Source of the DNA: Prorocentrum cordatum | Lineage: Eukaryota | DNA length: 64,000 bases | Reading direction: 5' to 3' | Assembly: GCA_963575745.1 (NCBI GenBank) | Contig: CAUYUJ010000303.1 | Span: forward strand, 434,001 to 498,000 | In this document: in pieces, positions 902 through 63,264 of the stretch | Layout: every line of letters begins with the position of its first letter | Position numbering within the stretch: position 1 is the stretch's first letter | Notes under the pieces: model-generated | Told to the model about the DNA's origin: nothing | Databases searched by the model: none | Seen by the model: the letters and a program-made list of their open reading frames with translations, nothing else | Translations under genes and position numbers: made by a program

Positions 902-922
902 TCCGTACCCTTTCGGCTCGAG
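902..922 (+). other. Relic dinoflagellate spliced leader
   Basis: TCCGTACCC-TTTCGGCTCGAG aligns 18/22 to DinoSL DCCGTAGCCATTTTGGCTCAAG and lies 45 nt upstream of the first ATG of the GT17 gene. Confidence 0.72.
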
Positions 923-967
923 GTGGAGTCCGAGCAGGCAAGTAAGCGCGGCCCCGAGCGGTTAATC

Positions 968-9289: not shown

Positions 9290-9350
<61 letters not shown>

Positions 9351-9508
9351 TTGCCGTCGTCATTGCCGTCGTCATTGTCCATTGTCCTCCTCCTCCTCCT
9401 CCTCCTCCCTCCTCCTCCTCCTCCTCCTCCTCCTCGTCGTCCTCCTCCTCCTCCTCCTCCTCCTCCTCCTCCTCCTCCGCCGTCCTCCTCCTCCTCCTCC
9501 TCCTCCTC

Positions 9509-20169: not shown

Positions 20170-20200
<31 letters not shown>

Positions 20201-20770
20201 GAGGAGGATAATGCGGATGATGATGATGCTGATGATGATGACGATGGTGATGATGATGATGATGATGATGTTGATGATGATGATGATGATGGTACTGGGG
20301 CCCATTTTCCTCTTGGTTTTTTTTTACAAGGTTGCCGCGCCCCAGGCTCCGGAGGCCGCAGGGGCTGCTGGAAGAGGCCCGAGGCTGTTCTGCAGATGGT
20401 TCCAATCGGCCCGAGGACAATCTCAGAACGCTCCAAGAGGGTCCCAAAACGGCTCCATCAGGGGTGCCCGACGGAGCTGAAGCCCTCGCTTGAGCATCGA
20501 TGTGGCATCATTTTCTTTTTGCTTTTTACATGGTTTCCGCGTCAGGAGCCCTCGAGGGCGCAGCCTGCGCGGAATGCGTTCCAATCGCAGGTTCCACCTG
20601 GCCCCGGGGCAACCTCACAGGGCCCCAAGAGGGTCCCAAAACGGCCCCAGCAGGGGTGCCCGACGGAGCTGAAGCCCTCACTTGAGCAGCGATTTTGCAT
20701 CATTCGCCCCGATACCGATCGCGTTCCGGAGGAGTCTTGCCGGAACGCGGTCGGTAAGGGCGCCACCCGC
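16190..20770. repeat. Higher-order satellite (6 blocks, 15 core units) bounded by (TA)n tracts
   Basis: 15 copies of the core CAAGAGGGTCCCAAAACGGCTCCAGCAGGGGTGCCCGACGGAGCTGAAGCCC, ~190-200 bp apart within a block. Blocks are separated by (GGA)n/(GAT)n linkers. Confidence 0.92.
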
Positions 20771-20888
20771 CCAGAGGTCCTCCGGAACTGGAGATTGGTT
20801 CCCGAGCAAACTTCCGAACCGGAACATTTTGGGCAACAGCGAAAGCTCCGGAACCATCATCGCATCCCGGAACCATCTTACTTGACAC

Positions 20889-20950
<62 letters not shown>

Positions 20951-21709
20951 ATATGCATATCTTAAATAAATAGTATCTATTTACACATACATATGCTTTT
21001 TTTTTTTTGTTTTTTTTTTTTTTTTTTTTTTTTTTTCTTAGATGCGTTTATATTATACATGACGCATATACATATGCACACAATGCAGGTTTCATAGTTC
21101 AACACGTTATTATTTGTATATATATGTTTGCATCGACAAACGGCGACAGTAATGTGTAATAGCTAGTTGTGCATATATATGATACTGCATGTGTATACAT
21201 GTCAATCAGAGCGCCATGCCCAGGCCAGCCGGCCAACAACTGGGGGGCTGCGTGTTTAGCCTGGGGGGGTGGGGGGGGGGGGCCATCGATTTCGACGCCC
21301 CTCTCGAGAGATCGTCGATGCGATGGGTTCGCCCACGGGGGCATAAGGACCACAGCTCCCCCAGTTATGGCTGGTCGGATACCTGTCCGTTTTTCAAATC
21401 GGCAGCGCAACGAAGTCAGTTGCGCGAATCCGCCTGCATGCAAATGCCGGGCTCGAGCGCCCATGCCCAGGCCACGCGGCCACGCTGGCCGTGCCAAAAC
21501 ATGGGGGGGGGGAGGGCGACGACGGGGACAGGGATGGGGAGGGGGGGAAGGGGCGGGGGAGGGGGAAAAGCAGCAGGCGGGCTGGTTACATACGGGCTGC
21601 CCCCTCAATCCCACGCAGCCCGGGGAACTTGACCTCCAGCGTTGACCAAAATGCCAATCCAATGGCATAAAGCTGGAGGAGAAGCCGGTAGGGCCGAGGC
21701 TCTCTCCCA

Positions 21710-28901: not shown

Positions 28902-29427
28902 TACGCGCGCTGCCCTGGCCGCGGACAAGCATGAGAGCACCCGACGAGTCAATGCGCACCCGAGCGCGCGTTGCAACAAATCTAGCAATCGGCCGACGAA
29001 CCACGATGAACTGAGCGACGTCAACAACACCCGCGGCAGGGAGGACTGCTGAGGGAGGAGCACTGCCCTCTCCCACCTTGCGCATAGCTGCCGCGAGCGC
29101 GTGCGGCAGGGTCAAAAAGCTGACGAACGGCCTTTGACTGCTTTGGGGCCTGCAGGGGGTGAGCTGCGACACTCGAGCGCCCAAATGGCCCCGAGGTGGG
29201 GCTTCAACTGCTTCGACTAAGAACACCCAGTGGGGCCGAACTCTGGGGGCGGGAGGCGGGGGGTGGCGCGCGGCACAGGGAGGGGCGTTGCTGGGCCAGG
29301 GGGCGGGGGTGCACACAGGGCGGCGCAGTTGAAGGACGATGGGGAGAAGGAGAGGAAAGTGCAACGTCGGTTTCGATCCTGGTAGGTGGAGAACAGGGGT
29401 CATGCATGGGGCGGGGCTGGGAAGGGG

Positions 29428-30019
29428 CTTTTTTTTTTTTTTTTTTTTTTTTGTTTTTTTTTTTTTATTTTATTTTTTTTTTCTTTTTTTTTTTCTTTTT
29501 TTTTATTTTCCTTTTTGTTTTTTTTTTTTTTTTCATTTTCTTTTCTTTTTTTTTTTTCTTTTTTTTGTTTTTTTTTTATCTTTTTTTTTTTTTTTTTTTT
29601 TTTTTGTTTTTTTTTTTTTTTTTTTGTTTTTTTTTTTTTTTTTTTATTTTTTTTTTCTTCTTTTTTCTTTGTTTTTTGTTATTATTTCAATGTGTCTGGC
29701 CCGCGCTGGCCTGTCGCGGGCTCTTGCGCGACGCAGCTGCCTCCATCGTTGGCCAGGCCACTCCAAAGTGGGAGCTCGAACTACTGCGTGCTGGTCGATG
29801 GGGGTCTCGATCCCAAAAACATGGACTACTATTGTTTCGTGTTGCTCTACAGCGTTACTGATGATTGGGGTGGCATTCCCGGGGGCGTGCTCTCCCCAGA
29901 AACTTGCAATTGTCAATTGTTTCACCCCTCCTGCTCAGGTTGCCCCCCCCCCCCCCCCTCGAGCCTGCCGCGTGCCCCCCCCCACCCCCCCCCCCCACAC
30001 ACACACACACCACACACAC

Positions 30020-35404: not shown

Positions 35405-42900
<7,496 letters not shown>

Positions 42901-44036: not shown

Positions 44037-44151
<115 letters not shown>

Positions 44152-44840
44152 GCTCTATCTACCTGTCTCTCATTCTATGCGCGCCCTTCGAGATATACAT
44201 GCAGTCAGGCGCGATTTTTTCCGGGGGGGGGAGGGGCGTGGTCGGACGCAAAACCATTGTTTAGGGCTGTGAAAGCAGGATCGACCTACTCATCGCACCG
44301 ACTGTACACGTATATACACCCCTGTCTCCATTTCTGCTTGCAAACAAGCGCGACGGCAGTGCGAGGTCGAGCCGCCCCCTGGCTGGGGGGGAGTCAGTCT
44401 GACTCGGTCTTCTTCTGACCTTCATCATGATCATCTCGACCACCTCCCCATCCCCGCGATTGCAAACGGTGGGTCGTCGACACTGGGAATTGGCTTGGCA
44501 ACGCATCGGAATGCGTTGCCAAGCCAATCATAGCATCGACGACTGAATGAGAGAATGACGAGGATGACATGGCTGAGAAACGATGGAATCAGGCATGACG
44601 AGCACGACGAGGATGACATGGCTGAGAAACGAAGGATGACTAGGAGACGCGACGAGAATGAGCATAGGAATGGCTGAGAAACGATGGCGGGGAGGCAGCG
44701 CCCCTGCACCGCCGCCCCACCTGGCGCAGCTGCAGTCAGCTGTTCCACCTCCTTGTCCCGCGACTCGTACACATTGTCGGCGTTGATCTGGCCTCCCTCC
44801 CTTTTCCTCACGCTCGATCTCTTTCGCTCGGTTGTTTTTT

Positions 44841-44892
<52 letters not shown>

Positions 44893-44897
44893 ATTTG

Positions 44898-44949
<52 letters not shown>

Positions 44950-45110
44950 CTCTCTCTAGTCTCGGCTCGAGAGTGCCCTGCACTCAGACCGCAGCCGCGA
45001 CGCGAAGCGCCCCGCCTCGGAGTCAGACTCCCAGGCCTCGCGAGACCGGAGGGGTCCCAGCAGGACCCTACTGATTCGCGTCACCTCTCTCCCACCAGAG
45101 CGCCCGCCGC

Positions 45111-47682
45111 AATGGCCCCCGGTAAGCCGGAGCGCCGTCGCTCTTCCAAGCAGCCGCCGAGCTCACGTCCTGCAGCTGAAGGGTCTCTCCTCCAACGCAA
45201 GCAGGACTGCATCGCAGCTTTCAAGCAAGCGGGGTCTGACCGCCCCACGGCCGCATACAACGGGCTCGCCGAGCTGAACGCGGACGAGCTGCAGGCCACG
45301 TACGACATGCACAAGACCAACACAAAGAAGCTCGGCAGTGCCTTGATCCGCATGTGTGCCGCCAACCAGATCAGCTACACGCTGGATCACCACCAGCGCA
45401 GCAAGCCTAAGCGCATTGGTGGTGACACATCACACCCACCAGCTGCGTCCGCACGTCTTCAGGCTGCGGACGCCCAATTCATTGCCTTGGACCCGGCCTT
45501 CTGGAAGGTCCCAGTCCTTGCCGAACCCACATCACTTGACGACGGCAAGACGTACAAGCCCAGTATCAGCCTCCACGACTACGAGAGCGGTGAACGGCTG
45601 CTGCAACACCACCTCGAGCAGGGTAAGCGTACCACGGGTCAGCTTGCGATTGCTGTCATGGGCCCAAAAAACGATAACTACGTCGGTACCGAGCTCGCCG
45701 TCCCCGTGCTGAAGCGTCACCCCAAGGCGCCCAAAGTGGTCCACACGCACGTCCCCGTGACCGTGTACCAGCTGGGCACCAAGGAAGTCGCCTGCACGGA
45801 AAAAGTAGCCGTCGCCACCATCGACCCTGCCGACCACGTATGCTGGATTCGGGCGACCATACATGAAACCGAGGCCATCGCCGCAGTCCCCTCCATGCAT
45901 CAGGCCTTCGAGGATCAGTTCTCGGGAGGTGCCCCCGTGAACGGTGGTCCACGCGCCAAGGGTCCTTTCCGAAGGGACTCCGCTCCACAGGACAAGGCGC
46001 GCCAAAACCAAAAGCACAGGGAGTCCAAGAAAGACGCTCGCCGCCAGGAGCTCGATAGTCAGCTCCAGGACACCTTCAAGGCCCTCTTCCACGGCAACTT
46101 TAAAGCCGTCACCATCCTCGAACCCTGCAAAAGCCTAGGCAGGTATGGATCGGGCGTCGGAAAGAGGTCCCTGGCTGCCACCTTCGGCGTCAGTCTTCAA
46201 GCGGTTGACAAGGTCTTGGCGGGTTCAGGGCAACTCGGCGCCACCTACGACCTCAGCAACGTAGGTGCAGACGAGCCCACTGCAGACAAGTACCAGACCG
46301 TGTGGTTCCCTGAGGACCAGCCCATCACGATGGCAGATGCGTTCCAGAAGTCGGTGGATTTCAAGGCCCTTGGAGTCGTCAGGCACGGCAAGTCAGGCTT
46401 ATTGGGGATCCGTGTTGCACGAGGGTCAGACGCCGCCAAGGCTGCTGCCGTCAGCATCCGTGGCTGCGAAGCCACCCTCGCCAAGACGCGATACCGCATC
46501 ACTGGCATTGCGGCACGCCACGCCACGCTGACCCAGTTCGCTAAGACTCTCACGGGCCCGTCCGTCAAATGGGACTGTGAGGTCTACCACACCGCCTGGG
46601 ACCCAGCCACTTCGGCTCAGTTTGCCTTAGTGCGCGCCCATCGTCCCCCACCCACATATACGGTACAGGTCGCAGGGTGCCCCATCCCGTGGAGCATCAC
46701 CGAGGCCCCGTTGGCTGAGGTGGTGCCGAAGAGGGACAACGTTACCATTGTCACCCCTACCACTATCACAGAGCCTGTGACGCCGCCAGCCCGTGGTGGC
46801 GGCTTCAGCCCCGCCACTGGCACACTACTCACCAAAGCGGCCCAGAGCCCTTACCTCCACGACCTCATGACTGCCACGCCCAAAGGCAAGGGCGTCGCAC
46901 CGCTCCTGATCCCCAAGGAGGAGCCTTTAGCCAAGCGCCACCGATCCTCCAGTGGGAAACGCGACGCCACGCCGCACGCAAGATCACACGGCGCCCCAGG
47001 CCGCAGCTCCTCTGCACCCCCGCACGGCACGGATGGAGCTGCCGAGCAGACGGCCGTCCAAGGATCAGGTGGTCATGACCCGCAGCTTGGCACGGTGGCG
47101 GCTGAAGGCGGGGGCCACACGGAAGGGGACGCTGCCACAGCCGCCGAGGTACCAGGCGACGCTGACGACGTCGAGATCCTCTCATCAGGTGATGAATTCA
47201 GCGTGGCATCTCGCGAACTCAACACCTTCGGGGAACGCTTCGCAACGGCCCCTAAACTGCCAGATGCCGCCACGACCCGCATCCAACACATGGAACAACA
47301 GCACGAGCTGCTTGCCAACACGGTGGATAACATGCAGGTTCAGCTTGCGGGCGTTCTCTCATCCCAGGCCACACTCACGGAGCACGTTTCAGGTTTGGAA
47401 CGAGGGCTTGCCACCGTCGTCACCCAGCAACAGACGGCAAACACCGAAGCTGCTGCACTGCGTGGCGACATCCAGGCCCTCCTCGGGCACCTCACGGGGG
47501 GCACCATCCACCTGCCACAGGTGGCCACTCTCGAAACAAAAAAGGAGGAAGCTGCATCAGTTGCCGATCCCGTGGCTGTCTGCGGGTGGATCGACCAGCC
47601 AGGCCAGGTCACCCCAGGGACGGGGCCCCCAGGGGCTGACAAAGGCAAAGACAAGGGTCGGGTCACTCAGGAACCCTATTGA
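45111..47682 (+). CDS. LINE-B ORF1-like protein
   Basis: Intact ~856-aa ORF at the 5' end of the element. It has a globular alpha/beta centre (TVWF..LGVVR..LGIRV..YRITGI) and a C-terminal heptad coiled coil (IQHMEQQHELLANTVDNMQVQL). Confidence 0.65.
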
Positions 47683-47856
47683 AGGTGCCTCAGAGAGCCT
47701 GCCTCAGCCCTCCGAGGAAGCGCCTTCAGAGGCATCTCTTCTCTCTTCGCGTCGTATCTCTTTCTTGTCATATCATGTCAGTTTTGGCAGCAGCACGTGC
47801 AAGCTATCTGGTGTAGGGACACCCGTCATCTTGCAGGGGGAGTGATTGTTGCAATG

Positions 47857-50800
47857 TACATGAGCATGCAGGGGTATCTGAGGATGCGTGCTGACATGCA
47901 GCTTTTGGCTCATCGCTCGCGCCGCCCGCCAGGCCTCGCCATCATGTGGCGCCTTGCCTGCAGCCTGGCCCTCCCCTCGCTCGCTGGAGCACACCCGTCT
48001 TCAGGCGGTGCGCCCCAGCATGGAGGTGAGGTTTTCCTGCGACACGCTGAACGTGGGACTCTTTTCTACCTTTACGATGACAGCATCTACAAGTACGATC
48101 ACTGCACCATTTTGGACCCGATCGTGAACAGCACCGTAGCCGCGGGTCCGTGCGGCAACGGACCGCTGGGCGCCATCGTGAGCGCATGCACGCCCTTGTC
48201 AACTACGACACATGCATCGAAATCCACCCCCAGCGTGGCCTCGACTGCGGTGCAGCAGATCTTTGACGGGGACGTTGATATAGGCCAGGCACACAGTGGC
48301 GGCTTCAGCCCCGCTGTCGTGCCCCGCTATTGCCCCACGGGTCTCACCACCCCCTGTGCGCTAGGGGCGAACCCGAGGAGGACCCTGCTTTCTGGCACCT
48401 GATGATGATCCGTGCCCGGCTCATACCGTGTGCTGCGGCGTGGGCACCAGGTGAGGACCACCAGGACGTGTTCTGGGCATGGCTCGAGGACTGCGTCCCG
48501 TACATCCTGGCGACGCTTCATCTGCCACAGTACGATCACCTCTTCCAGGAGGATTCTGAGGACACAACCGACGCCCTGCGCCAGCTCACTGCGCTCGACA
48601 TGTGCGAGGACATCTGGTATAGAGCGGGCCTCGACAGACAGCGCACAAACCGCAACCTCACTCTTATCCAAGGCAGCCGCGAGTATTCCACCCGTTACTT
48701 TGGCCTCCTTCTGGAATACCAGGGTGCTCGTGCCCAGCTTGTCGGCCCTGAAGCTTTCACGGCACCTTTGCCGCCATACCTCTCACGGGCCCACGCCTTA
48801 CTACCAAGAGGCCTTCCCCCACCCGACCAAGACGCCCTGGCGTACCTCGCCGATGCGATCCTGCACCACCCGACAGACATGCAGCCGCTTGTGGAGGCGG
48901 AGCTCGCCGCGGCACCGATGGAACCGCTTAACCCACCACCGCCAGCTGGCCTCGCCCAGCACGCCACGGGTGATCAGGCCGCAGACGACCCCGTACCATG
49001 GTTGCCTCAGCACATCGCGGCCAGCGACATCAGCGACACACCCCTCGACTCATTCCATGCGTCGGACGATATCAGCAACATATCCCTGGGCTCGGTCCAC
49101 GTGGACGATAGCCAGGACGACATGGAAACCCAGGATCGCAACGGCACAACACCACCAGGCGACACGGCCCAGCGTGACAGCGACAGTGAACCCTACTTAG
49201 GGCACACCTCGTCGCACAGCAGTCCGCCCAACAACTCGGCTCAGGCCGACCCCTGCGCACAGCTCAACGACGCTGAAGGCGTCACTGCCGCCGACGCGAC
49301 AAGCCATTCCACTGCATCGCCAGCTCATGCCAGCCCGTGCAGTGGCGGCTTCAGCCCCGCTGCAGCACTGGCTAGACCTGGACATCCCCAGACCGCAGGT
49401 GGCAGCACCACGCCCTTCACCTCTGTACACCGTGACAACGTGACTGACTCCAACCCCAGTGTCATTGGCCACTGGCAGGCCGACATCGACAACGACCCCA
49501 TCGATGATGAGTACCCAGATGCCAGCGGTTCCCACGAGCCCCAGCACAGCGCAGCGGCATCACGACATTGTGGCTGCCTCATCTGCCTCTTTGTGGCCAC
49601 GTACGCCATCGTGATAGCAATGCCGTACAAGGACCAGATCGATGGGTACTTGCCGACACCGAGCCGAGACCCCAGCGACCGACAACGACGACGACGCAAA
49701 GCGACGGCACCAGGCCCATCTGTGCCCACCACACCCCGACGCACAACGACATACAACGTCACGTCCGCATTGTGGGCCACTCTCAAATGGACTAGCGTCA
49801 AACTCAGAGATAGCGTCTCGGGCGGAGCCACCGCAGTCGGGGTCGGCCTCGGGGGCGTCCTGAAATGGGCCAGCGGCAAGCTCGGGGCTATTGCCACGGG
49901 TGGAGTCGTGTGTGGTCTTCTACTCGTCGGTGCCAAACTTCTTGCCCAAGGAGCTGTCGGACACGTAGGAGCCCGCATCTGTGCGCGGGCCCTGGACTCA
50001 TCCACAGCCCAGTGGTGCCTCCGCTGTTGCCAACCGAGCAGGAGGCCGCGTGATGAGGCCACATACACAATGCCGTGCACGCTCGCCGACGAACACGACG
50101 ACCAGCACGTGCACGCACTCCGACATCCGCAGCTGCAGGAACACTACGCCGCAGCAGTTGCCGCCGCAGTCGCCGATGTCACTACCGCCACCACCGCCGC
50201 CATCGTCGAAGTCACTGCCGCCGTATCGCGAGCCTCGTCTGTCACACCAAGATCGACCAGCCCGTCTCCGCGAGACGGCTCCAAAAGCGGCGCGGCATAC
50301 GGTAACCTACCGACTAACGAGGATGCCACAGCACACGGCAGCGACACCGAGGCAAGGGAAACACGTGAGTGCACCCACGATAGCCCGTGGTCCATCTTCC
50401 GACACGCTGATGCTCGTGGTTCCTCTCCCGACGCGGACACCCAACCACCACGACGGCGAGCGCGCTATGCATCACCCCACAGGCCCCAGGCGCCTTCAGG
50501 CCCTGGTATGCCTTACACAGCCCTCAAGCCACCGACACGCAACTTACGCAACACTATCCAGCGCGACCCAGCGGTCCCCGTGCCGCCGAAGAGCATACTT
50601 AACGCCCTGTATCAAAACGGCTTTGCGCTTGGTAACAGTGGCGTGTCTACAGAGGACATCAAAGACGCTCTGCGACTCCACGACCATCCTCGATTTACAC
50701 ATGATCCAATACTCCAAGCGCTGGGGCCGTGGACGGACATCATGCAGAGGCCCCCGAACCGCCTCACTTGGGTGCTCGAAGACTCGGGCGGAAACTCAGG

Positions 50801-53800
50801 CGAGACAATCTTCCCATACCTCACGTGGGACCTCCGCCAACCCACCACCGACGCGCCCACTGTCTTCTGGCATGGGACCCGCGGCGACCTTGCGGCCCGT
50901 CTTGCTGCCAGTGGAGGGCACCTCTTGCAGGTCCCCGCCGTGAAGCGAAGGGCCGAACTGGCACCAACGTTGGCCGCACGTACGCGAGCGTGCACCCTTC
51001 GCTGGCCGCGTGGTACGCAATGCCGCCCCACCCGCCCTACAGTCTCGAAGACGACACCCTCGCGTGGGGACCCATCGCACTCTGGATGTGCGAGGCCACC
51101 CAACCACCGCGCGGGGAAAACAGGCACAACTTCGTGAAAGGGGAGGCCCACGGAGCGCGCCTCATTTACCCTCGGGCCCTGAGCCTCCTCATCCGCATGG
51201 ACTGGTGCGCCCCCACAGAAGCTGCTTCCAGGTGCCGTGCCCTACCACACGCCTATTGCATGGGCGACTGCGCGCACGCCCTTCACATCGCTGGCTACGA
51301 TCATCCAGATCTCCGTGAGGCGGCTGAAGCTCACGACCAGGAAGCTAGCACCAGGCGCAGAACAGCCATCGCGGCAGCGTGGCCACCGCCGCAGGCACTT
51401 TTTTTGGTTTTCTTTTTTTTATTTTTTTTTTTCTTTACTTTTATTTTTTTTTTATTTTTTTTTATTTTTTTTTTCTTTTTTTTTTTCTTGTTTTTTCGTT
51501 TTTTTTTTTTTTTTTTTTTATTATTTTACTCGCCAGAGGCAGCGCGAGTATGGGCCAAACAGCACTACGACACGGAAGCAGCCACCAGTGATGACCCTAA
51601 CCAGCCCCGCCCACGCGTCTCGCTTCACATGCTCCAGCTGGACCCGAAACCACTCATCGACCTGGTGTACACTGGCTTGCAAGCTGTCCCCGTGCGGGGG
51701 CACCCTGACGCACGCGGGTCGCGCCCCAGCGGCTCCAGCCCTGGGGCCGCGTCTGGCCCACCACGCACTTACAAGTCAGGCACAGCCCTGGCGCACAGTC
51801 CTGACCGCTCATCGACGTCATCAGGAGCCGACGAACGCCGCACGCCTTCCCTCATCAGTGCGGCCGCCGCCCTCGCCCGAGGCCGTGCCCGCCCACGGCG
51901 ATCTGCCTCTCGCTCGTCACGACAGAGTGGCGGAAATTCCACCTCAGACAACAGTGGCTTCGAGACGTGGGAGCACATTGAGACGGAAGAGGAGCCGACT
52001 GCCTACCACGTCCTCGCCTACCACGTCCGTGATGTGCGGACCCGTGTCAATGCCCCTGGCATCGAGGTCTGGCTTGACCCTGGTGATCACCACGACGGCG
52101 CCTACTTACCGTGGGGGACGACAGTCATGGGCCACCGCGTTATAGACCCTGCGGTAGCGGGGCGGGACGGCTGGGTCATCCTCCACCACGACCACGGCGA
52201 CACCACTACTAAGCTCTGGGCACCGACCCAAGTCCACGTCAAGGCGGACGACACCTGGCGCACCGTCATGGTACCAGCGGACATGGGGCCCCAGTGGATC
52301 AGGTGCCGCGCCGAGGACGCTCGCCTCCCCGCCGAGGTTGTCCGCACTACAGGCCAATCCTGGTTTGCTGACGTCTGGCCCTTGTGGGATCGCCCGCGAC
52401 CCCACCCAGACGACCCAGGCGCTCCCGCCTCTACCAGGACGCTGGTCTTGCCTTCAGTGTCGATTCCAATGCTGTCAGTACTGTGCGGCTCGCCGCAACA
52501 CGCAGCTCGGCACCTCGGGCCAACCAACGTGCCCAGACTGCGCCCGCAGCGGACTGCGTACACTTATGGACTGGTCCACGGACTACTCGTGCAACAGTTG
52601 GACGTGTGCATACAGCACCAACAACAGGGACTCCGACACATGCTGCCTGTCCAGCAGGTGCCCCCATCCCCCCCGTCCACACAGCCTGCTCGACGTCCGT
52701 GCCACAGGGATGCCGCCGCACATCCTTGCCCGCCAATTCGGCAACGCGCCAGCCCTCCACGACCTTAAGGAACCCCCCGAGCGCCTTCAGGCCCCGGGGG
52801 GGAACCTCCACAACCAGGGCAAGCAGGTTACCAGGGTCAATGGTACTTCCCACCGCAGCCGCGGCGCGTCCCCAGGCAGGGACTGCCTGACGGCACAAGG
52901 CGGCCACCTGGGTTCACAGGAACGGGGATGCCCGAAGAACCTTTCCCCGACCAACCTCTTTGGAGGGAAGGCTACGTGCTCTTCAGCCCCCACAAGGCCC
53001 TCAAGGAGGAATTCACCTTCAACAAAACGGTCCGCCGACCCTACTCCCTAGCCATCACCAACATGTACAGGGACCGTGTCACGGTCAGGACCGTCTGCGA
53101 GTCGATCGCCGAGCGCATCCACACTACCCGCACCCGGTGGCGAGATGTGGTACTGTACTGGGACGCCGAGGGTGGCCCTGGGCCACAAGCCCTCGACTAC
53201 GACATGCGACTCTGCGACGCCATGGTGAGCCGTGCCACGACCGAAGCCGAGCTAAACCACGACCGCAGCAACCGTGGTAGTTTCTGCCTCTATGGGCCAG
53301 CGCACCAGCGAGCTGTCAACATCACGGCGATCTCCGAGCCGCAGAACATCGACTACATGGAGCATGTGCGGCGATACTCACCCGTAGGGGGGACCTACCC
53401 TGACCACGCCTTCGAGCACGTCTATCGGGGCTGGCAGCGGCCCGACGTGCCACCATCCTCCCCGACACCCGTCCCCTCTCGAGAGCCGACTGGCAGCGAC
53501 ACCAACAGCACCAGCAGCGCATTCAGCAGCGCGACCCACGTGACGCAGGACAGCAGGGCACGCCACGCTACCGCTCTCCCGCGCGAGTCCCGACAGGCGG
53601 TAACACGGCCTACGACGGGGTTGCCGCCTACTACCGTGGCACCATAGGTGCCAGGCCCGCGGCTGCTGGAGCAGCCGCCTCCAGCTACGGCCACGCCCCC
53701 CACGCCAGGGTACACCCAGCGGTCATCGGCTACCCGCGTGCACCCGTGCAGGCCCTCCCAAGGGCCACCTCGCCAGTGCCAGGGTCCACGCGCGCCTGGG

Positions 53801-54834
53801 GCCTTTACTCAGGCCGACATGATGGCACCTCCAGAAACCAGCCCGCAGTGATAACCCCTGCGGCTTCAGCCCAGGGGGCTGCAACAAACCGTGGCAGGGC
53901 TGGGCGCCCCGAAGGATGGCGTGATGCGAACGTTCGCGCTTGGCAACCTCGCCAGCACACGCCCCCGCCAAACGTGGCTGCAGCACTGCGCCCTGCCCAG
54001 GCAAAACCTGCCCCACCTGAGCGGGAGAGGCAGCCGCTTACCCCGCTCGTCCTCACGCACATCCAGGCGCATCACAGCGCCTCCCCGCGGCACAGCGAGG
54101 GAATCGCCCACCACGTCAGCCCCCGCCCCGACGCTGTCGACCCTGACCAGGCCACAGCCACGGCGGAGGGCGGCACAAGCGCCTCTCGCCAGCCCAGCCC
54201 ATCACCCTGCGCGGCGCCGATCCGATCCCCGAGCAGGGCGGATTCCGAGCGCGCTAATGCCCAGGCGACCTCGCCACGCGCCCGCCACACGGGCGGGCGC
54301 GTCCCGCGCAGCAGGTCCTGCAGCCGCCACAGCTCACGCAAGGCCCCAGGGAGCTCCACGAGCTCGCCGCCTCGCGAGACTCAGTCTGATGGCCGAGCCC
54401 CCGAAGTGGTGCCACGCTTCGGTGCCAGCGTCATCGAACCTGGCCAGGTCGACCTCGAGCCGACGCCGTCCACGGACCACGAGCCGCCGCTGCCCACCCG
54501 CGTGATCGTCCCCATCGACGAGGCGCCAACCTTCGACCCGTTCAAGAACAAGTACCGTGTCAAGAACCTTGTGGCGGTTTTCGGCGGGGGCTCACCGCTC
54601 TCACCTCAGAGTCGGGGCGGAGCCCCCGCCACCTCGGCTGCTGCGGCAGCGGCGGCCCCGCGGGGAATCAGCCCTGTCCGCAACGTGGGCCTCACGGCAG
54701 CGGGCATGGACGAGGCCCAGCGCCAGGCCTCCGACCGTTCTGCTGGAGCTGTTCCACCAGATGCTGCTCATCAAGATACTGACGGGGCGGGCGCGCCACC
54801 GCAGGACGGACCAGCGGTGTCGCGTGCGCAGTAA
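47857..54834 (+). pseudogene. Extra coding region of LINE-B: chain of + strand frames broken by frameshifts/stops, with hydrophobic segments and an ART-like domain
   Basis: Abutting or overlapping ORFs 47797-48402, 48330-51137, 50729-52768, 52928-53647 and 53746-54834, all non-repetitive. Confidence 0.55.
50855..51205 (+). other. ADP-ribosyltransferase (PARP-like, H-Y clade) domain, frameshifted at ~50925
   Basis: VFWHGT (His codon at 50871) ..GG.L / LAGP..GRTYASVHPSLAAWYA (Tyr codons at 50981 and 51014), then beta-strand-like IALWMCEA and LIYP. Confidence 0.55.
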
Positions 54835-55112
54835 ATGCGCGTGCGTTGTGCCGCTGCCGCGCCTAGCCGCCGCCGCTGGTTCGCTTTTGCTTTTGTGTTC
54901 GGCAGGACGGATCGAGGAGTCGCCTCCCTCTCCCTCTGCTGCCGTCTCACCTCTCCTCCCCTCGTCCCCTATGGTACAGGAGTGAGGAGGATTTTTCGAG
55001 ACAGTTTTACTGACGTTTATGAACCCCCCCTGGCGCAGTGCCGACCATGTCTCGCCTATACTTCTGGCCTGACGGCGGCTTCAGCCCCGGTCAAGCTAAT
55101 CCATAGGAACGC

Positions 55113-58100
55113 CATGAGCTCCTACTGTGGCCAAGCCTTCTACCTGGGCGAGGGTCAGGCTGACCTACACCGTGCGGGGCGTGCAAACCCCAGCTCCACC
55201 GATGGAGACGGGCCAGGTCGCTCCATACACCTCGTCAGTCTAAACATCACCAGTCTCTCAGCGAATTGGCCAACCATCACCGCTCTTGGTGTCGACCACA
55301 ACGCCGCAGTCATTGCACTACAGGAGACCCGACATGCCAAGCCGCCCAGACAAGCCATCGCTACCAGCGCCGCCAATCCACACCACGGGGGATACCACGC
55401 CAGTCTTGGACCTGACCTGGATCTGGCGCGAGCCCAGCGCAGAGATGCCCACGGCGGCACAGACCACACCGTCGTGGGCAACACTGGCGCCTCGGGAGGG
55501 GTCGCCATCCTCTCTAAGGATGCCATTGTCGACTCCACTGTCGACGACAATGCGCCCTGTATCGTCGCCCTCAAGGCCAAGAAAAGATGGCGCGAGGTCT
55601 TTCTCCCGCTCTGCACTCAACACCGCCGCAGGCGGCGACGAAACAACCACGGGCCCGCGGGGATCTACATAGCGAGCCTCTACGGGAATGCTGGAGGAGA
55701 CAGCACAGCTCTTTTTCGGCTCGCTGACTGCGCCGCCGCTAGGGTCGGCTCAGCCCCCTACTTCATCTGCATGGACGCCAATACGAACATCGACGACAAT
55801 CCACACCTTCTGCACATGTTGCAGCACGGATGGTTCAACGTCGCTGAGGGCACACCAGACCACACCATGCACACATACGGCAATATCCCCGACTGGGACC
55901 GCGTCACCAAGTGCCCCCGCACTTCGCGCATCGACTATATCATTGCCAACCAAGCGGCGCGATCCCTTGTCACCGACTTCTGCTATCTACGCGACTTGCC
56001 AGCGAAGTCTCATGTTGGCCTGCAGGTCACGCTTGACCTCAGTCGCCTCGACCATACGGCCCGACGTCTTCTTGCCCCCACGCCCTACCCTCCCAACGAT
56101 GGAGCTCATGAGGGTCACGAACTGCAGGCACTAGGGACCCTTATCGCTGGGCGATATCAGGACCGCATGGAACAGGCCGACACACGCGACGACGTGGAAC
56201 GCATGTTCGCCCTGGCTAACGAGGCCAGTCATGAGTACCATCTCACCCGTCTGCGGGACCTGCCACCTCCACCGCCCGACCACCCAAAAAAGAAGCCCCC
56301 CACCATGCACGGGCTCACGCCCACGTTCGAAGAGCGACCAGTCGTCCCCCGCGCCTTCCCCACCTACGGAGCTTCCACGATACACATGAACCGACTGCGC
56401 AAGCTCCATCGGCAACTCTGTGAGCTTCGTTTCATCGGACAGCACCATCATTTAGATTGCCGTGCCATCCCGCCGTACCTTGCGCAGCGCATCGACTGCA
56501 CGTGGACCGCGGCCCGCCTCCTATGCCACAAGCTGCGCCCCACGGTTCTCCTTGACTTTCCCGAGGCCTGGACCCCCGACGAGCCAGCACCTCACGGAGA
56601 GCATCTTGACGTTTTGATCCAACACCTCGACTTAGAGCTGGCGCGACGTGCGAACCGTGCCAAAGCTGAACGCATCAAGATATGGGCTGAGGGCGTCCGC
56701 GAGCCAAGCGGGCGAAAGGCGGCCATATACGCACGGGCTGCTGACAGCTCGCCACGGCGTATCTCCGCACGCCTACCACACCTGACGATACGCAACTCCA
56801 CTGCGACACCAACGCCTTTAAACCTGACGAAGCTAGCACGGACGACAGCGACGCTGACACCGAAGCTGGCGGCTTCAGCCCCAGCGACGGTAGTTCGCCC
56901 GACACGGACAACGACGAAGACCACACTCGTGAACCACCACCTGCGCAAGTCCCCGACATTCTCCCTGCCAACGCCATTGTTGCTAACACCAAAGACATGC
57001 TTAAGCTCATGGTCGACACTTGGGAGCCCATCTTGGGCAGGTACCGTGCCCGTGCTGGACATGACGCCGAAGCCATGCCGACGTGGGCTGACTTCTACGA
57101 CGAGTACCGACAAGAGCTGCCGACGCCATCACCAGCTACCCCTTTCCACCTCACCGACGACCAACTCATCCACTTTATTCGCACCCGTTCACCGCGCCGT
57201 GCGGGGGGACTGGACGGCTGGACTACTAAGGAGGCTAAGGAGTTACCCGACGACATCCTTCGCCTCTTCGCCAGCGTCTTACGCGCTATGCAACGCACTG
57301 GCACCATCCCAGAACCCCTCCTTCATGTGCCAAGCCCGTGCCTCCGAAAAGGCCGAGGCGAACTCCCAACGGACCAACGACTTCTCTCGGTGCTTTCCGT
57401 TTGGATGTATGCGTGGGAAGCGCCAGCTTACCGCAGCCTCACGGACTGTCGGAAAGGATGGACCCACGCCACGAGTTTTGGCGCTGTCCCCAAAGCTACC
57501 ATTGGGGACGTCAGCACCTCTCTTGCCCTGCGCATCGAACACGCCAGGGCCTTACTCCTTCCCTTAGCTGGGGCTGCCCTTGACCGACAGAAGTGTTTCG
57601 ACTACCTCATCACGGACATCTGCCTTAACCTTGCGCTTCACGCGGGGTGCCCCAAGACATCGTTACTGTCCGCAGAAACTTCTACAGTCGCCACAAACGC
57701 TACATCCGCATGAACGGTGCGTACTCCAAGGAACTGGCCAGGACTAACGGTCACCTCCAGGGAAGCTCTTGGTCCCTGGACGACATTAAGCTGCTCATGT
57801 GTGTGTGGACCAAGAGACAGCATCGATACGTTCCGCGATCACTCAGCACTACCTTTGTTGACGACAGCAACTCCACTACTCACACCGCGCCTGAGTTGCA
57901 GAAATCTCTTGATGAAACCGCCAAGTTTGATCGATTTTCAGGTCAACGCATTCACCCTGGCAAGGTGGCGGGGTGGGCGCTCACCGACGAGCTTCACGCC
58001 GCCGTTACCCAGCTCACTCTGGCGGAACGGCCCTTACGCGTGGTCGACTCCTTCAAGCTCGTCGGGAGTTACATCAACGCCGAGGCAGCGCCGGCTCCAG

Positions 58101-60943
58101 CCGCGCTTAACCTCACGGCCACCGCTGACGCCCGTTTTCGCAGGGCGACTAGTCGCCTGCCGCGCATTGGCAAGCTCCCATCACCGATGCTTGTTAAGGC
58201 GCGGCACGCCCGTTCCCTTGCTGCCAGCGTCTGTACCACGGGCACCGACATTCAAGCCCCATCAGGCCCCGTCAAAACTGCCTACAACCATGCCCTTAAG
58301 GCGGCTATCCGCCCCAAGGGATACAGGTGGGTCGAGTTTTGGACTCTCATGGCCGTGTGCGTCCCAGGACACGCCCTGGAGATTGACGCCATTACGCAGC
58401 GTGAAGTCTTCCTGTGTCTGCGGCGACAGGTTAACCGCGACGCTACTCTCTGCGGTCTCGTCAGGGATCTCCAACACCATGTCCAGACCCTATTCGGGGG
58501 AGGACCTGTCGGTCGACTTGTCCAGACGCTTCAGCAGCTCCGTTGGACCTGGCCCACATTTGGCATCATGTACGACGACTGGGGCTGTCAGATCAGTTGG
58601 CTGAACTTACCCCAAAACGCCTTCCTTCACATGCTGCGAGCCTCACAACGCAGAGCCTTTCTGAGAAAAATCAAGCCACGGCGTCATGACCTTTGACACC
58701 TGGCCTCTGTCAGACAGGGCCTCGACCTCTTCGCCAGCACGTGGCTCGCCCGAACGAAAGGAGCAGCCAAATGCAATGCCTGGCAGCTGGCGCTCCTCCT
58801 GAACTACCTGTCGGGCGGGGACCACACCCAACAGCGACGATCCCGATCAAACACGTCTGCTGACCCCAGCCCCATCTGCCGATACTGCGACGAAGAAGAG
58901 GAAACTCAGGAGCACACTGTTCGCGACTGCAAGTGCTGGGCCCGAGAAAGAGTCCCTCTCACCACCCTCATCAGTGACGAGCAGTGGGCCCGTCTTCCGC
59001 CGCACACAAGACACTGCGGGCTCTTCGATGAAGACCCAGCCCCCCTCGACCTGCAGGCCGACCTCGCGAGGGACCCGCTACCTCAGCCCATACCGCGGCC
59101 CCCACCTGAGGGAGATCCTGCGGCTTCAGCCCAGGACTCCTACACAACCTACCTTGACCACGACACTGGTTGGACATGGGTCTACGCTGCCACGGACGGT
59201 GCATGCACCAACCAAGCCATCCCATTGCTAGCACGAGCGGGCTACGGCGTCTACTACGGCATCGACCACCGCATGAACTACAGTGCACGCGTTCACGGCA
59301 TTACGCAAAACGCACAGCTTGCGGAGACCCTCGCCATTGTCCACCTCACGGCATGTGCTGAACGGCCCGTACACGTTTTCGTGGACAACCAGGCGGTGGT
59401 AGATGGGTTCCAAAGTATCATCGACGGACACTCACCACCGCAGGGCACGCACGTGGAGCTCTGGGAAAAGATCCACCGATGCGTCATGGCCAAGCCCAAC
59501 ATGTTCCGCGTCGAGAAAATCGCAAGCCACCTGGGAGACATGGGCATCGACCTCGGGCTCATCGGGCCCATCGCGGAGGATTTCAATCGTCAGGCTGACG
59601 CCCTCGCCACAACGGCGGCACGTACTCATAACCTTCCAGACGACATTGTCGAAGCTGCCAAAACACGACATCGCCAAGCGACCGTGCTTCATGGAGTCGC
59701 TGTCGCCATCTACGAGCGTAGACACCGTGCACTCCCCCTCCCACACCGCAGGGCTGGGTTCACAGCTGCGGAACTCAACAAAATGGAACCAAATCCCCTG
59801 CTGTCTGACCAGGCACCACCCGCGGCTGGACCAGTCATCCCACAGAACCCGGACGAGCTCTGGGCCGAGGCCCAACGGGCGATATTCGACGAACAGGAGG
59901 ACGACCCGTTCGGCTTTGGTGGGGGCCTGGACTTCCTGGGCGACGGGCCAGCCAGCGCAAACCCTGCCTCGTCGGGCACCCGCACGGCGCCCTCGACTCC
60001 GCCATTGAGAGCGGCAGCGCACCCACATGACAACGCCGCTCACTTTCAAGACGCTGACGAACAGGAGGATGACCTGTTCAGCTTCGGTGGGGGATCGGAC
60101 GCTTTGGACGACGGACCAGCCAGCGAAAACCCTGCCCCGTCGGGCAACCTCTCGATCCCTACTGCGACTCCGTCCCCGAGAGCTACATCGCCCACATACG
60201 ATGATATCGGCCACGCCCAAGACGCCGACCACGACCTGGGTGACCCCCGCGGACTGAGTGGCATAGAGGACGCACCGCCGATACCACACGCTGCCGACCA
60301 TGCCGCCCTACCGAGACGCCAACCTTCTACGCGACCGACCTCAGAGCCCTTGCACGGCATCATGATTGGTCCCACCGCGCAAACCACTCCGCCCCCCCAC
60401 CGCCGGCAGCCCGCGGGGGCGGCTTCAGCCCCCACGCAGGGCACTAAACCAGACAGGCCCTCGTGCCCCGTCCACGCTTCCATCGTTGCTGAGCGAGAGG
60501 AAGCGGCTCTCCCGACCTCTCGGGGCGTGGCCCTAGCGGCTCCAGCCCTGGGGTCGCGTGTGCCCCTCCAGTCACCCTTCAAGGGTGACGGACGACAGCG
60601 TACAGGGTGCCGCACTACGTTGGTCCACCATTTGGACAGGCGTACCGAGGACCTTGCCTCTGTCTCGAGGCCCTCGGCTGCTGGCACTGAGCAGCCACCC
60701 CTCACCGACCGCGAAACCGAGCTGTCACAGGCTATGGCTGCTCTCCAGCAGAGGTGCTTAGCTCTCGCCGCGGACCTCGCCGCCGCCCAAGCTCGTCAAG
60801 GCCCTCTACTCCAGCGCCTTCACAGCGCTGGGCGAGCCTTTGCCGAGCTGCTCACGGCCTCGCCCGATGGTGCCGTGCCGTCACTCACCATCCAAGCTAT
60901 GCTGTCATCGTTCCGCGGCGCTCCACCTGGTGCCCCGCGCTAA
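55113..60943 (+). pseudogene. LINE-B ORF2: APE endonuclease, reverse transcriptase, CCHC knuckle, RNase H; 2 frameshifts and 1 stop
   Basis: APE: SLNITSL, ALQETR, GGVAIL, MDAN, RIDYII, SH. RT: AGGLDGW, QRLLSVL, LDRQKCFD, GHLQGSSWS, FVDD. Knuckle CRYC..EH..C. RNase H: ATDGAC, QLAE, FVDN, KIASH, NRQAD. Frameshifts at ~56750 and ~57650, TGA at 58694-58696. Confidence 0.93.
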
Positions 60944-61318
60944 TCTCCTCCTTTCTGCCTGCCCGTGTGTACGCGTGGCTCCGCGTCCACGGTGTCAGGG
61001 CGTGGGGGCGGGGGGTGCCCCGTCACTGCGCGCCGCTTAGCGGCCAAGCGCCCAACTGGCGGTCTGCCAAGCCGCCTAGCCACGTGTCAGCACGTCGCCT
61101 TTCTTGTTGGGGCCTCTTTCTTTACGCGGTCTGACAGGTGAGATCATCATCGTCTGTCCGCCGTCTGCAGCGTCTGTCGCACTGCGCCGGGGGAGGGGTT
61201 TTTTGTTGCCCGCCCTCGTATCTAAAGGCTGCACCGCCGCAAATAGTGCATGCGAGTTGTCGCACCGCAGTGCGCCTCGCGGACGGACCCTGGTCCGCCT
61301 ACTTGTCCGATCTCTCTT

Positions 61319-61354
<36 letters not shown>

Positions 61355-61599
61355 TCTCTCTCTCGCATGTTATTTGCATCTTGCGTTATATATTACTAGG
61401 TGCCTATATCACTCCTCCTATTCCTGCCTCTCGGTCTCACTCTCCATCCCTCTCTCTCTCTCTCTCTCTCTCTTTCGCATTTCTCTTGGCTGCCTGGATA
61501 TCGCTCTGGAGCTGCATCTCTCTCACTCTCCCTCTCCCTCCCCCGATTCTCTGAATCTAAACGCTCCTCGCCAGACTCCATCGTACTTCACCGCTCTTC

Positions 61600-63264
61600 A
61601 TTGCTGAGCTCATCGCTACTCTCCCCGACCTTGCGATGCGACATTCCCAGTGTCCTGCGGAGTACTTCTTGCACAGGTTGACTATGGCCTGGCGCGCAAT
61701 CTCGTGAGTAACCTCGCCTTTGATCGTCACCTGGCATACCTGGCTCCACTTCTCGCCTGGCTTCGCCTTCTTCTCCTGCATCACGAAGATCGAGTGCCGA
61801 TCCTGGGGGCGCGCGAAGGCAGTGCTTCGTCGCGCGGGGCATGGGCTAAGGGTGGATGGGGGCAGGGGCAGGGCGAGAGGGCGGGCAGGGGGGGAGAGGA
61901 TGGGGAGCAAGGAAGAGACCAGATGACGAGGATGACCGGAGGGCGAGGATGGACGGGGGGGGCGATGAGGATGGGCAGATAGGGAAGGAGGACCAGGATA
62001 AGGGCGATGTGAGGATGGCCTCTAATTCCCCAGAACCTCAGCGCACGCAAGTTTTGAAGTGGCAGTGCAATTTTGACACCAACGCTGGAATGGGCTTGAG
62101 CGGAGGACAGAAGCAGCGGGACAAGCAAAACAAGCATCTCCTTCTGTGGCTTCAACTTGGCCTCCAGCTTTTTCCTCCCATCATGCGTCTTTCCTTCACA
62201 CACTGGCGGTACCCTGCCCTTTCCAGGATGCGTTTTCACTTCCAGCGCTTCTGCCAAATCTTCAGGCCTCATGTTTTCCACGCGAATCCATTCTCCTGCA
62301 ATCTTACCCCTCACCTCGTTCTCATAACTCGTGCTATCAAGCTCGTCGCTGTAGATGGGCTGACCTTTCTTCGCTCCCGAGCCCGCCCGCTGCGTGTACG
62401 CCATGGCTTTTGCAGAGCACCACTTCGCTGTCTTCTCATCTCCTCCTGAGCTCTTCCCTCCTGCCGCGACTGCTGCTGAACCTGCAGCTGCCTTCCCTGC
62501 AGCCTCGGCCGTCTCATCCAGCTTCCTCTTCTTTGCAGCCTCCTCTGCCTGAGCCGTCATTTCTCGCTGCATTGCAACGTGCCTCCTCTTCTCGATTTCG
62601 TTGAGTCTACTCACTACGCTGGGCCATGCATCGTCGAAGACACTTTCCTCGATCTCGTCGAACACTTCAACTTTCCTAACACTAGTCATAACTGTCTTTG
62701 ATCCAAGCTTGATCCGAGGCATTTGTCTCTCTGCATCGACTTCGGGGCCCTCACATTCTTTATCTGTAGTCGTGGCTTTCAACCTCTTGGCTTCCTTTTT
62801 GCGTGCCTCAACTGCGCCTGCTGCCCCTGCTGCTGGTTTCTTTCGCACCGTCTCCTCAGCGCCGTCACCTGATGCCTCATCATCGTCAGCTGGCTTGGCA
62901 GCAGGCCTCTTCGCAACTACTTTCGAGGCTGGTCTCCGAAGCACCTTCTTTAGCTTTTCACCTGGCTTGTCCTCATGATCTGTTGGCTCATCGGATGCTT
63001 TCTTCGCTGGCCGCTTTGACACGGGCGTGGCTTTCTCTTCGTTGTGCTCTTCGTCTTCGTCTGCCTCGTCCTCGTCCTCCTCCTCTTTGATGCTTCTAGC
63101 GGCTGCCTCTTCCTCCTCCTCTTCTTTTCCTCCTCATCCTCATTAGTTTCTTCTTCCTCTTCCTCTTCCTCTTCCTCTTTGATATCCTCATCTTCGCATT
63201 CCGCCTTCTTGTCCTGCTCGCAATCATCTGGCGCGGGCCTCTTCATCGCTACGAACGGCCGCAC
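61600..63264 (-). CDS. Lys/Glu-rich KRPAA-repeat protein of unknown function, probably multi-exon
   Basis: Repeated KRPA/RRPA/KKPAA motifs and acidic tracts, followed by a globular part (GEWIRVENM..KLEAKLKPQKE) and a downstream exon (IFVMQEKK..WSQVCQV..LCKKY). Confidence 0.45.

Follow-up and report, generated by a model that had tools for sequence, protein, structure and literature searches.

A putative PARP-like ADP-ribosyltransferase domain in the middle reading frame of a 16-kb LINE-like element of Prorocentrum cordatum

Our analysis of a stretch of 64,000 nucleotides from Prorocentrum cordatum (assembly GCA_963575745.1, contig CAUYUJ010000303.1, positions 434,001 to 498,000; hereafter the window, with positions counted from its first letter) revealed an element of about 16.4 kb on the plus strand, resembling a giant long interspersed nuclear element (LINE). 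Its three open reading frames (ORFs) would be ORF-a, ORF-b and ORF2, the last with an apurinic-type (APE) endonuclease, a putative reverse transcriptase (RT) and an RNase H. A segment of ORF-b had been taken by an earlier note, made from the letters alone, for an ADP-ribosyltransferase (ART) domain. With moderate confidence we read this segment as a very divergent accessory domain of PARP-like ART fold, carried in ORF-b of a three-ORF, (CT)n-tailed retrotransposon without long terminal repeats (non-LTR). The domain appears to retain the histidine that binds nicotinamide adenine dinucleotide (NAD) and both tyrosines of the H-Y-x clade, while an alanine would replace the glutamate of poly-ARTs.

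Reading frames, family and predicted fold of the ART-like domain

The following features, all on the plus strand, are referred to below; residue numbers are those of P0002, a close relative of the window protein.

50565..51223, plus strand: predicted PARP-like ART-fold domain (P0002 residues 166-385), core from 50865
50865-50879, plus strand: FWHGT, His codon 50871-50873 (P0002 H268)
50972..51019, plus strand: second motif segment, GRTYASVHPSLAAWYA, Tyr codons 50981-50983 and 51014-51016 (P0002 Y305 and Y316)
51086..51097, plus strand: M-C-E-A strand, Glu codon 51092-51094 (P0002 E342)
51149..51175, plus strand: H-G-A-R-L-I-Y-P-R strand, Ala codon 51155-51157 at the place of the catalytic Glu

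FWHGT lies in the frame of the ORF 48279..51137, and both GRTYAS (50972-50989) and AAWYA (51005-51019) lie in the frame of the ORF 50705..52768; the window translation between the two motifs runs GGHLL and then AGPRREAKGRTGTNV. The earlier note had placed the motifs in different frames and had suspected a one-base frameshift near 50925, and on both points it was right. The downstream half served as query in a word-indexed protein search, which retrieved P0002, a protein of 420 amino acids (aa) that is 95% identical. It is coded by L001, a contig of 1423 nt from a public record, 97.7% identical to the window over 1423 nt and open in a single frame over all 1423 bases. Where the window has CTCTTG-CAGG, the aligned L001 has CTCTTGCCAGG; one C is absent from the window between 50927 and 50928, and its absence splits the ART-like domain over two frames. 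In the intact copy P0002 reads FWHGTRGDLAARLAASGGHLLPGPRRETKGRTGTNVGRTYVSVHPSLAAWYA without a frame break. Motifs lying in separate frames in intact copies, which the earlier note had named as grounds for giving up its reading, are therefore not what is seen in L001 and P0002, where they share one frame.

The P0002 family is rare: 18 proteins matched at E<=1e-3, and 11 of them at <=1e-10 (HMMER phmmer, 1.84 billion representatives). All are short metagenome fragments, and ten members that were looked up came from singleton or two-member metagenome clusters, on contigs of 0.7-5.3 kb, with no protein names. Alignment A1 combines P0002 with 17 of the 18 phmmer matches (18 rows, mostly fragments); P0019 was excluded (1574 aa, 10 short stretches, E 8e-4). 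The motifs conserved in the family are WHG[TC]R, PGPRRE, R-x-Y-x-S, AA-x-Y, C-E-A and H-x-A-[RK]-LIYPR. Since this conservation extends across the family down to about 30-38% identity, the pair of motifs goes beyond chance. The counts in A1, from which sequences without a residue at the position in question are excluded, are as follows.

W-H-G-[TC]-R, His: 10/12 (Gln in 2/12)
PGPRRE, Arg (R291): 13/13
[RK]-x-Y, Tyr: 10/11 (Cys in 1/11)
A-A-x-Y, Tyr, 11 residues further: 12/13
C-E-A, Glu: 13/15
H-x-A-[RK]-L-I-Y-P-R, His: 10/14
H-x-A-[RK]-L-I-Y-P-R, Ala: 9/14

All these residues are present in the window copy, and the conservation of His and Tyr, which the earlier note had proposed to check, is high at all three sites (10/12, 10/11 and 12/13). 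A comparison of substitution rates had been proposed there as well. The window differs from L001 by 21 synonymous and 11 non-synonymous changes, giving proportions per synonymous (pS) and non-synonymous (pN) site of 0.058 and 0.010 and a pN/pS of 0.18. For the ART domain alone (11 synonymous, 5 non-synonymous) the ratio is 0.15. The protein has thus been under purifying selection along the lineages separating the window copy and L001. Words near-identical to parts of the ART region also occur in sequencing runs (20 rows from 15 studies, mostly aquatic metagenomes, shares 0.07-0.78), and a scan of genome contigs gave L001 as the sole match.

An AlphaFold2 model of P0002 built on A1 has a predicted local distance difference test score (pLDDT) of about 80-95 over residues 166-385, with a mean of 63.8 and a disordered N-terminus. 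Its elements follow in the order H-G-T strand, helix, Tyr strand, helix with the second Tyr, C-E-A strand and final hairpin. When the model was compared with the Protein Data Bank (PDB) by Foldseek, the listed matches were all PARP-family catalytic domains; the best, the ART domain of PARP4 (E 4.3e-4, prob 0.98), was the sole match at E<=1e-3. VIA-align, which does not depend on Foldseek, was run against 48,161 representative chains. Ranks 1-14 were PARP-family chains (Z 6.2-5.2, root-mean-square deviation 3.8-5.0, 113-146 aligned residues), namely PARP13, PARP16, PARP2, tankyrase 1, PARP10, PARP1, tankyrase 2, PARP4, PARP15, SRO1 and PARP3, with the inactive PARP13 domain at the top. Ranks 15-22 were also ART-fold chains: an ADP-ribose (ADPR) complex, tankyrase 2, RCD1, the TASOR pseudo-PARP and two more, with a Rhs ART toxin and pertussis S1 likewise within these ranks. 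Below rank 22 there were helical matches to the N-terminal helix. In a viral structure library the best named matches were giant-virus PARP/ARTs (E ~5e-3), and the named neighbours in the ESM Atlas were all ARTs (PARP, Exotox-A, Tox-ART-HYD1, Arr; 0.79-0.80, a lead only).

The earlier note's assignment to the ART fold of the PARP/diphtheria-toxin (H-Y-x) type is therefore supported by Foldseek and VIA-align, with weak, sub-threshold support from sequence. The modelling and Foldseek comparison that it had suggested put PARP catalytic domains first, and an absence of ART-fold matches, its other stated ground for refutation, is the opposite of VIA-align ranks 1-22 filled with PARP/ART chains.

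At the sequence level, the Pfam PARP profile PF00644 (cut-off 26.7 bits) matched two of the 18 A1 members at E<=1. These are P0020 (19.6 bits, E 7.1e-4) and P0006 (16.9 bits, E 4.7e-3), which cover profile positions 47/50-102, that is, from H-G-T to the second Tyr. For a profile-profile comparison, eight bacterial PARP domains were fetched with PF00644, which scored above its cut-off in 4 of 301 genomes. Alignment of the family with these by hhalign gave P 0.0032 over 54 columns, and with the four longest bacterial rows P 0.0012 over 50 columns. In both runs the His and the first and second Tyr of the family are aligned with the corresponding bacterial residues, and the spacing between the tyrosines is 11 residues in the family and in the bacterial domains alike.

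Several results count against this picture. First, both Pfam matches are below the cut-off, neither P0002 nor P0001 matches any Pfam family even at E 10, and P0002 has no sequence match in the PDB at E 10, either by phmmer or with the A1 profile. Second, the hhalign probabilities are low (10-19%), and a PF00644 scan of the metagenome-assembled genome (MAG) holding L001 did not match the L001 contig. Third, a second model restricted to the domain (L001:658-1422, same rows, A4) is poorer, with a mean pLDDT of 69.9 and values of 40-58 in parts of the core, and its scores are weaker (best Foldseek E 0.017; best VIA-align Z 4.2, none with Z>=5). The alignment behind both models is shallow, and by the tool's own note a VIA-align Z <8, as all values here are, can reflect a common arrangement, so that the Z values are middling. 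Finally, a profile-pattern scan of metagenome contigs and a scan of viral contigs found no relative, and a degenerate WHGTR...PGPRR DNA pattern hit 26 loci in metagenome contigs, all of them chance matches by tblastn. PADLOC reported nothing at its thresholds for family members.

Sub-threshold or middling scores and shallow models would also be expected if the likeness to ARTs were a chance or convergent arrangement of strands and helices in some unrelated domain. We regard this as quite unlikely. Fold comparison with two engines and three libraries, the Pfam profile and the profile-profile alignment agree on one superfamily, and the searches align His and the two Tyr with their counterparts in the PARP motif. 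Moreover, the second model keeps the ranking order, PARP-family chains coming first (Z 4.2-3.1): a Z of 2 or more is found for 44 of the 48,161 chains, and the 17 best-ranked of these comprise PARP-family chains and the ADPR complex 9ld3. As independent methods agree and the conserved residues fall on NAD-site positions, the segment 50565-51223 very probably has the ART fold, as judged from the models.

Other branches of the ART superfamily were considered. The Tpt1 motif has His at its second position, plus an Arg/His tetrad. An ART of the Tpt1/KptA or DarT kind, acting on nucleic acid (RNA 2'-phosphates or DNA bases), could account for the ADPR-complex chain 9ld3 (Z 5.2), for named tRNA 2'-phosphotransferases at Z 2.1-2.4 and for the low-ranking DarT and putative RNA 2'-phosphotransferase matches in the viral library; the Arg-rich PGPRRE loop might in that case bind phosphate. 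However, PARP domains score higher and align over 113-146 rather than 72-83 residues, the Pfam and hhalign matches are to PARP, and the second motif residue is Tyr instead of the His of Tpt1. Tpt1/KptA itself was rejected for this residue and for the Z values of the named Tpt1 structures, which are below those of PARPs, and a nucleic-acid-directed enzyme of this broader kind seems very improbable. R-S-E ARTs have Arg on strand 1 and an S-T-S motif. An R-S-E enzyme of the cholera/pertussis-like type was also rejected: strand 1 of the domain has His, not Arg, and pertussis S1 (Z 4.2 and 2.3 with the two models) scores below PARPs.

Conserved residues and predicted activity

In an extended hhalign alignment of low confidence, C-E-A is paired with the bacterial PARP strand A-E-A. 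For the last strand the global and low-mact modes of hhalign gave no trustworthy alignment, and the register was set by eye: bacterial E-Y-L-V-Y (L034/L035) against A-R-L-I-Y of the family, which puts Ala at the Glu position. The turn after this strand has four residues in bacterial PARPs and one in the family, whose conserved His is two residues before the Ala and whose Arg/Lys follows it. The earlier note could not assign a third catalytic Glu, and neither can we: at this register Ala is found in 9/14, and the nearby E359 of P0002 is Glu in 1/14 of the A1 sequences, so no conserved Glu lies near the catalytic position. The triad thus reads H-Y-A, not the H-Y-E of poly-ARTs.

PARPs with an H-Y-hydrophobic triad act as mono-ARTs, and those in which His or Tyr is missing as well have no activity. 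The domain has both residues, which makes NAD+ binding likely, and the domain would then act as a mono-ADP-ribosyltransferase in the manner of the H-Y-hydrophobic PARPs; the chances that it transfers ADP-ribose appear about evenly balanced. If catalysis fails, it could serve as an NAD- or ADP-ribose-binding module.

The latter outcome merges into an alternative with a genuine but minority claim, namely a true PARP-like fold that is non-catalytic, a binding or scaffold module like the pseudo-PARPs ZAP/PARP13 and TASOR. This is a live option on the residues seen. The catalytic position lacks Glu, two of the 12 members have Gln for His and one of 11 has Cys for the first Tyr, and the inactive PARP13 tops the VIA-align list, in which the TASOR pseudo-PARP also appears. 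Yet pseudo-PARPs usually lose the His and Tyr residues, which are kept here at the frequencies given above, H-Y-hydrophobic PARPs such as PARP10 are active mono-ARTs, and an invariant PGPRRE loop next to the NAD site points to constraint on a ligand site.

The three-ORF element and the place of the domain in it

The element and its parts are listed below.

44960..45111, plus strand: presumed 5' end and 5' untranslated region (UTR), directly after a (CT)n tract at 44850-44960
45112..47682, plus strand: ORF-a, ATG at 45112, TGA at 47682, 856 codons
47944..54834, plus strand: ORF-b, the long middle ORF with the ART-like domain; broken, start uncertain
51965..52420, plus strand: second conserved domain of ORF-b, motif HDGAYLPWGT, no Pfam match
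54832..54837, plus strand: TAAATG, the ORF-b stop followed directly by the first ORF2 ATG
54835..60943, plus strand: ORF2, broken by frame changes and an in-frame stop
55291-55959, plus strand: endonuclease, Exo_endo_phos PF03372, 25.9 bits against a cut-off of 24.5 (aa 153-375 of 54835-57564)
about 57200-58400, plus strand: putative RT, RT-like motifs found by eye in two frames, including FVDD
59189-59620, plus strand: RNase H, Pfam, 28.5 bits against a cut-off of 25.8
60944..61366, plus strand: 3' UTR and (CT)n tail, (CT)n at 61310-61366
38916..40771, minus strand: 5'-truncated second copy of the element's 3' end, matching 59459-61486 at 82-89% identity

Judged on these sequence features, the element has most of what defines a LINE of the APE type. 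A Pfam search of all large ORFs between 44.6 and 61 kb matched only the endonuclease/exonuclease/phosphatase (EEP) and RNase H families. Among the named ESM Atlas matches of the RT region 57629-58693, 26 of 30 were RVT_1 clusters (scores <=0.95, 180/256 features shared). Against the RT assignment, neither of the two frame pieces is matched by sequence in Pfam or the PDB. The N-terminal ORF of ORF2 had no homologous protein among 8000 scored candidates. Both the truncated copy and the main element end in (CT)n; around the full-length copy a target-site duplication is unreadable, both ends abutting (CT)n. The unit is about 16.4 kb long, of which about 9.7 kb is coding sequence upstream of ORF2 in two ORFs.

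ORF-a matches no Pfam family, and its C-terminal part looks coiled-coil-like by eye. ORF-b starts at ATG 47944 or later and is open from 48279, which makes roughly 2,200-2,300 codons. In P0020 (641 aa, 35-38% identical) the second block comes about 200 residues after the ART block, in the same order as in the window; the second domain matches P0020 residues 450-610 with 35% identity over 161 aa (E 1e-20). Because the two blocks are colinear in P0020, ORF-b is, on this sequence comparison, a conserved multi-domain protein that continues towards ORF2. A possible start at 47944-48000 (plus strand) is signal-peptide-like, MWRLACSLALPSLAGA, and two hydrophobic stretches of 19 residues (49560-49616 and 49872-49928, plus strand; Kyte-Doolittle >1.6) lie upstream of the ART domain.

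The earlier note had placed the ART inside a LINE. With some limits this is supported: the ART-like domain is outside ORF2, in a separate long upstream ORF, 3.6 kb before the ORF2 ATG. The stop of ORF-b is followed directly by that ATG, with no UTR, tail, (CT)n or repeat between them, which suggests that ORF-b and ORF2 are translated from one RNA. The 5' limit of the unit comes from C329, a contig in a 6.5-Mb bin (G001) that also contains L001. It begins with 132 nt of LINE 3' end (93% identical to 61180-61310), passes through (CT)n and continues as the 5' UTR and first part of ORF-a, at 97.6% identity to window 44864-46556. The similarity begins inside (CT)n, at 44864, and 44965-45112 matches in 142 of 148 positions. 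In the window, the sequence before the (CT)n at the element's 5' end differs from that in C329, and 44150-44870 is not a diverged LINE 3' end; C329 is therefore another copy, joined head to tail. By this join the unit begins at about 44960 and runs to the (CT)n tail near 61366. The (CT)n at both ends of the element and the join at positions 1-220 of C329 suggest copies arranged head to tail or insertion into (CT)n tails.

The bin was compared with 57.8 kb of the window (1-40000 and 44200-62000). All long matches are to parts of the element: ORF-a (98%), the ART region (98%), ORF2 (96% and 89%, on two contigs) and the 3' end. In the 40 kb outside the element, matches other than that to its truncated copy (39011-39214) were confined to simple repeats and did not exceed about 250 nt. 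As only element parts recur in the bin, the three ORFs behave alike as high-copy DNA. The bin is labelled a myxobacterial MAG and has at least four contigs (C329, C731, C429, C941) of this eukaryote-type retroelement, which looks like contamination of the bin by high-copy repeats.

Divergence from the bin copies is similar in the three ORFs, with pS of 0.052, 0.058 and 0.091 and pN of 0.005, 0.010 and 0.013 for ORF-a, ORF-b and ORF2, respectively. In ORF-a the differences from C329 are 18 synonymous and 5 non-synonymous, and in its other two frames 2-3 synonymous and 17-19 non-synonymous. ORF-a, ORF-b and ORF2 have all been under purifying selection.

Not all observations favour this linkage. 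It is drawn from one full-length, decayed copy and one junction contig of 1.8 kb, and C329 could be an assembly mis-join through (CT)n. Among the contigs obtained, the span from ORF-b to ORF2 is seen only in that of the window. The coding nature of 53404-54831 (476 codons) follows from its openness only; periodicity of G+C at third codon positions was too weak for mapping frames.

Some of these points would fit an ART-bearing ORF that is not part of the LINE, but a multi-copy host gene, or a repeat of another kind, downstream of which a LINE happens to have inserted. The domain is 3.6 kb away from the ORF2 ATG, only one contig spans ORF-b to ORF2, a region of about 10 kb in the place of ORF1 is far beyond that of usual LINEs, and C329 could have arisen from LINEs that target (CT)n upstream of such a gene. 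On the other hand, a LINE truncated exactly at its ORF2 ATG, right after a foreign stop, would be a coincidence, and there is no UTR, tail or (CT)n at that boundary. Pieces of ORF-a, ORF-b and ORF2 alone recur together, as long stretches, in an unrelated bin; the three ORFs are on the same strand with similar pS, and ORF-b is as decayed as ORF2 in the window copy. A separate gene seems to us an improbable, though not negligible, explanation, and from the arrangement of the sequence the ART-bearing ORF probably belongs to the LINE.

The window copy carries the following lesions.

50927/50928, plus strand: break in ORF-b, 1-base deletion relative to L001
51400-51525, plus strand: T-rich insertion in ORF-b, about 126 nt, in frame; absent from P0001, P0007, P0008 and P0020
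52766-52768, plus strand: in-frame stop in ORF-b
within 53404-53647, plus strand: probable frame change in ORF-b
within 48279-48402, plus strand: possible frame change in ORF-b
near 56745-57564 and 57629-57710, plus strand: frame changes in ORF2
58694-58696, plus strand: in-frame stop in ORF2

With at least two frame breaks, a stop and the T-rich insertion in ORF-b, and further damage in ORF2, the window copy is dead. Similar T-rich tracts occur at 20974-21074, 27174-27253 and 29386-29726.

The window as a whole is GC-rich (about 55-73%) and eukaryotic-looking. A second LINE ORF2 is found at 8968-12006 (plus strand; Exo_endo_phos 28.8 bits, RVT_1 35.9 bits); tblastx and blastp comparisons of the element with the rest of the window, this LINE included, gave no real similarity. 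An ORF at 902-2278 (plus strand) matches Glyco_transf_17 (E 1.7e-11) and is probably a host gene. The stretch 16200-20830 is made up of tandem units (about 660-1050 bp) that themselves contain GAT/GAG-rich repeats (families D15-D18).

Significance and comparison with known systems

LINE accessory proteins are regarded as RNA-binding chaperones, with few lipid- or chromatin-binding modules, and single-strand-break repair, through which target-primed reverse transcription must pass, is governed by ADP-ribosylation. A PARP-like domain encoded by the element would add ADP-ribosylation, or sensing of ADP-ribose or NAD, to the abilities of a retrotransposon. Candidate targets during target-primed reverse transcription would be the element's own ribonucleoprotein, the ends of the nicked target DNA, and host repair or restriction factors. 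The targets named by the earlier note, nucleic acid and host repair or defence proteins, are likewise speculative. The strongest form of the proposal, namely that giant (about 16 kb) three-ORF LINEs of aquatic protists encode an active PARP-like mono-ART which the element needs, is speculative and, on present evidence, rather unlikely. If it were true, an NAD+-dependent modifying enzyme would be known from a retrotransposon for the first time, and such an enzyme could mark nicked target DNA, complementary DNA ends, its own ribonucleoprotein or the host proteins of repair and restriction. With the domain, the PARP-like superfamily would also gain a very divergent new branch, missed by current family libraries, and the element indicates that a size of about 16 kb, including roughly 10 kb of additional coding sequence, is attainable for LINEs.

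The predicted fold is most similar to PARP catalytic (ARTD) domains (PARP10, PARP16, PARP13/ZAP, PARP4), which are the top matches in Foldseek and VIA-align. The domain shares with them the H-G-T strand, the Tyr strand, the second Tyr 11 residues further and a Glu in the next strand; the canonical Glu is missing, as it is in mono-ART and pseudo-PARPs. Unlike PARPs, the domain falls below every family threshold by sequence, its His helix and Tyr strand are connected by a loop with 7 additional residues and the invariant PGPRRE, and its segment from the C-E-A strand to the last hairpin is much shorter. The N-terminal subdomain (P0002 residues 166-260) is specific to the family and not found in PARPs, and the domain sits in a retrotransposon ORF, whereas PARPs are in cellular genes. 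It resembles PARP-type ARTs and probably descends from them; being below the Pfam threshold and without the Glu, it is classed here, by its sequence, as a new, very divergent PARP-like family and not as a PARP.

The element itself is similar to APE-type non-LTR elements with RNase H (I/Tad/LOA/Ingi-like architecture) in the EEP endonuclease, putative RT and RNase H of ORF2, and to APE-type LINEs in the 5'-truncated copy, the simple-repeat 3' tail and the upstream stop abutting the ORF2 start. It differs from APE-type LINEs in its length of about 16.4 kb, its two upstream ORFs, and the PARP-like domain accompanied by a second domain without a known family. The modules of LINE ORF1 proteins that we know of are coiled coil, RNA recognition motif, CCHC, esterase and PHD, and to our knowledge none is an ART. 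A full-text literature search, with Repbase-type catalogues and supplements outside its scope, listed no paper on a LINE-encoded PARP-like or ART domain, and in the word-searched text of a survey of PARP distribution the string 'transpos' is absent (PMC4245714).

Two PARP-like folds already tied to LINE biology, ZAP/PARP13 and TASOR of the HUSH complex, are both among the VIA-align matches. ZAP is reported to inhibit LINE and Alu retrotransposition (PMC4423928), and TASOR to be a pseudo-PARP (PMC7532188). As hosts deploy ZAP and TASOR against LINEs, a LINE-borne version would make a conflict over ADP-ribosylation testable from the side of the element. ZAP and TASOR are host restriction factors without the His, Tyr and Glu residues, whereas the domain described here appears to be encoded by the element and keeps both His and Tyr.

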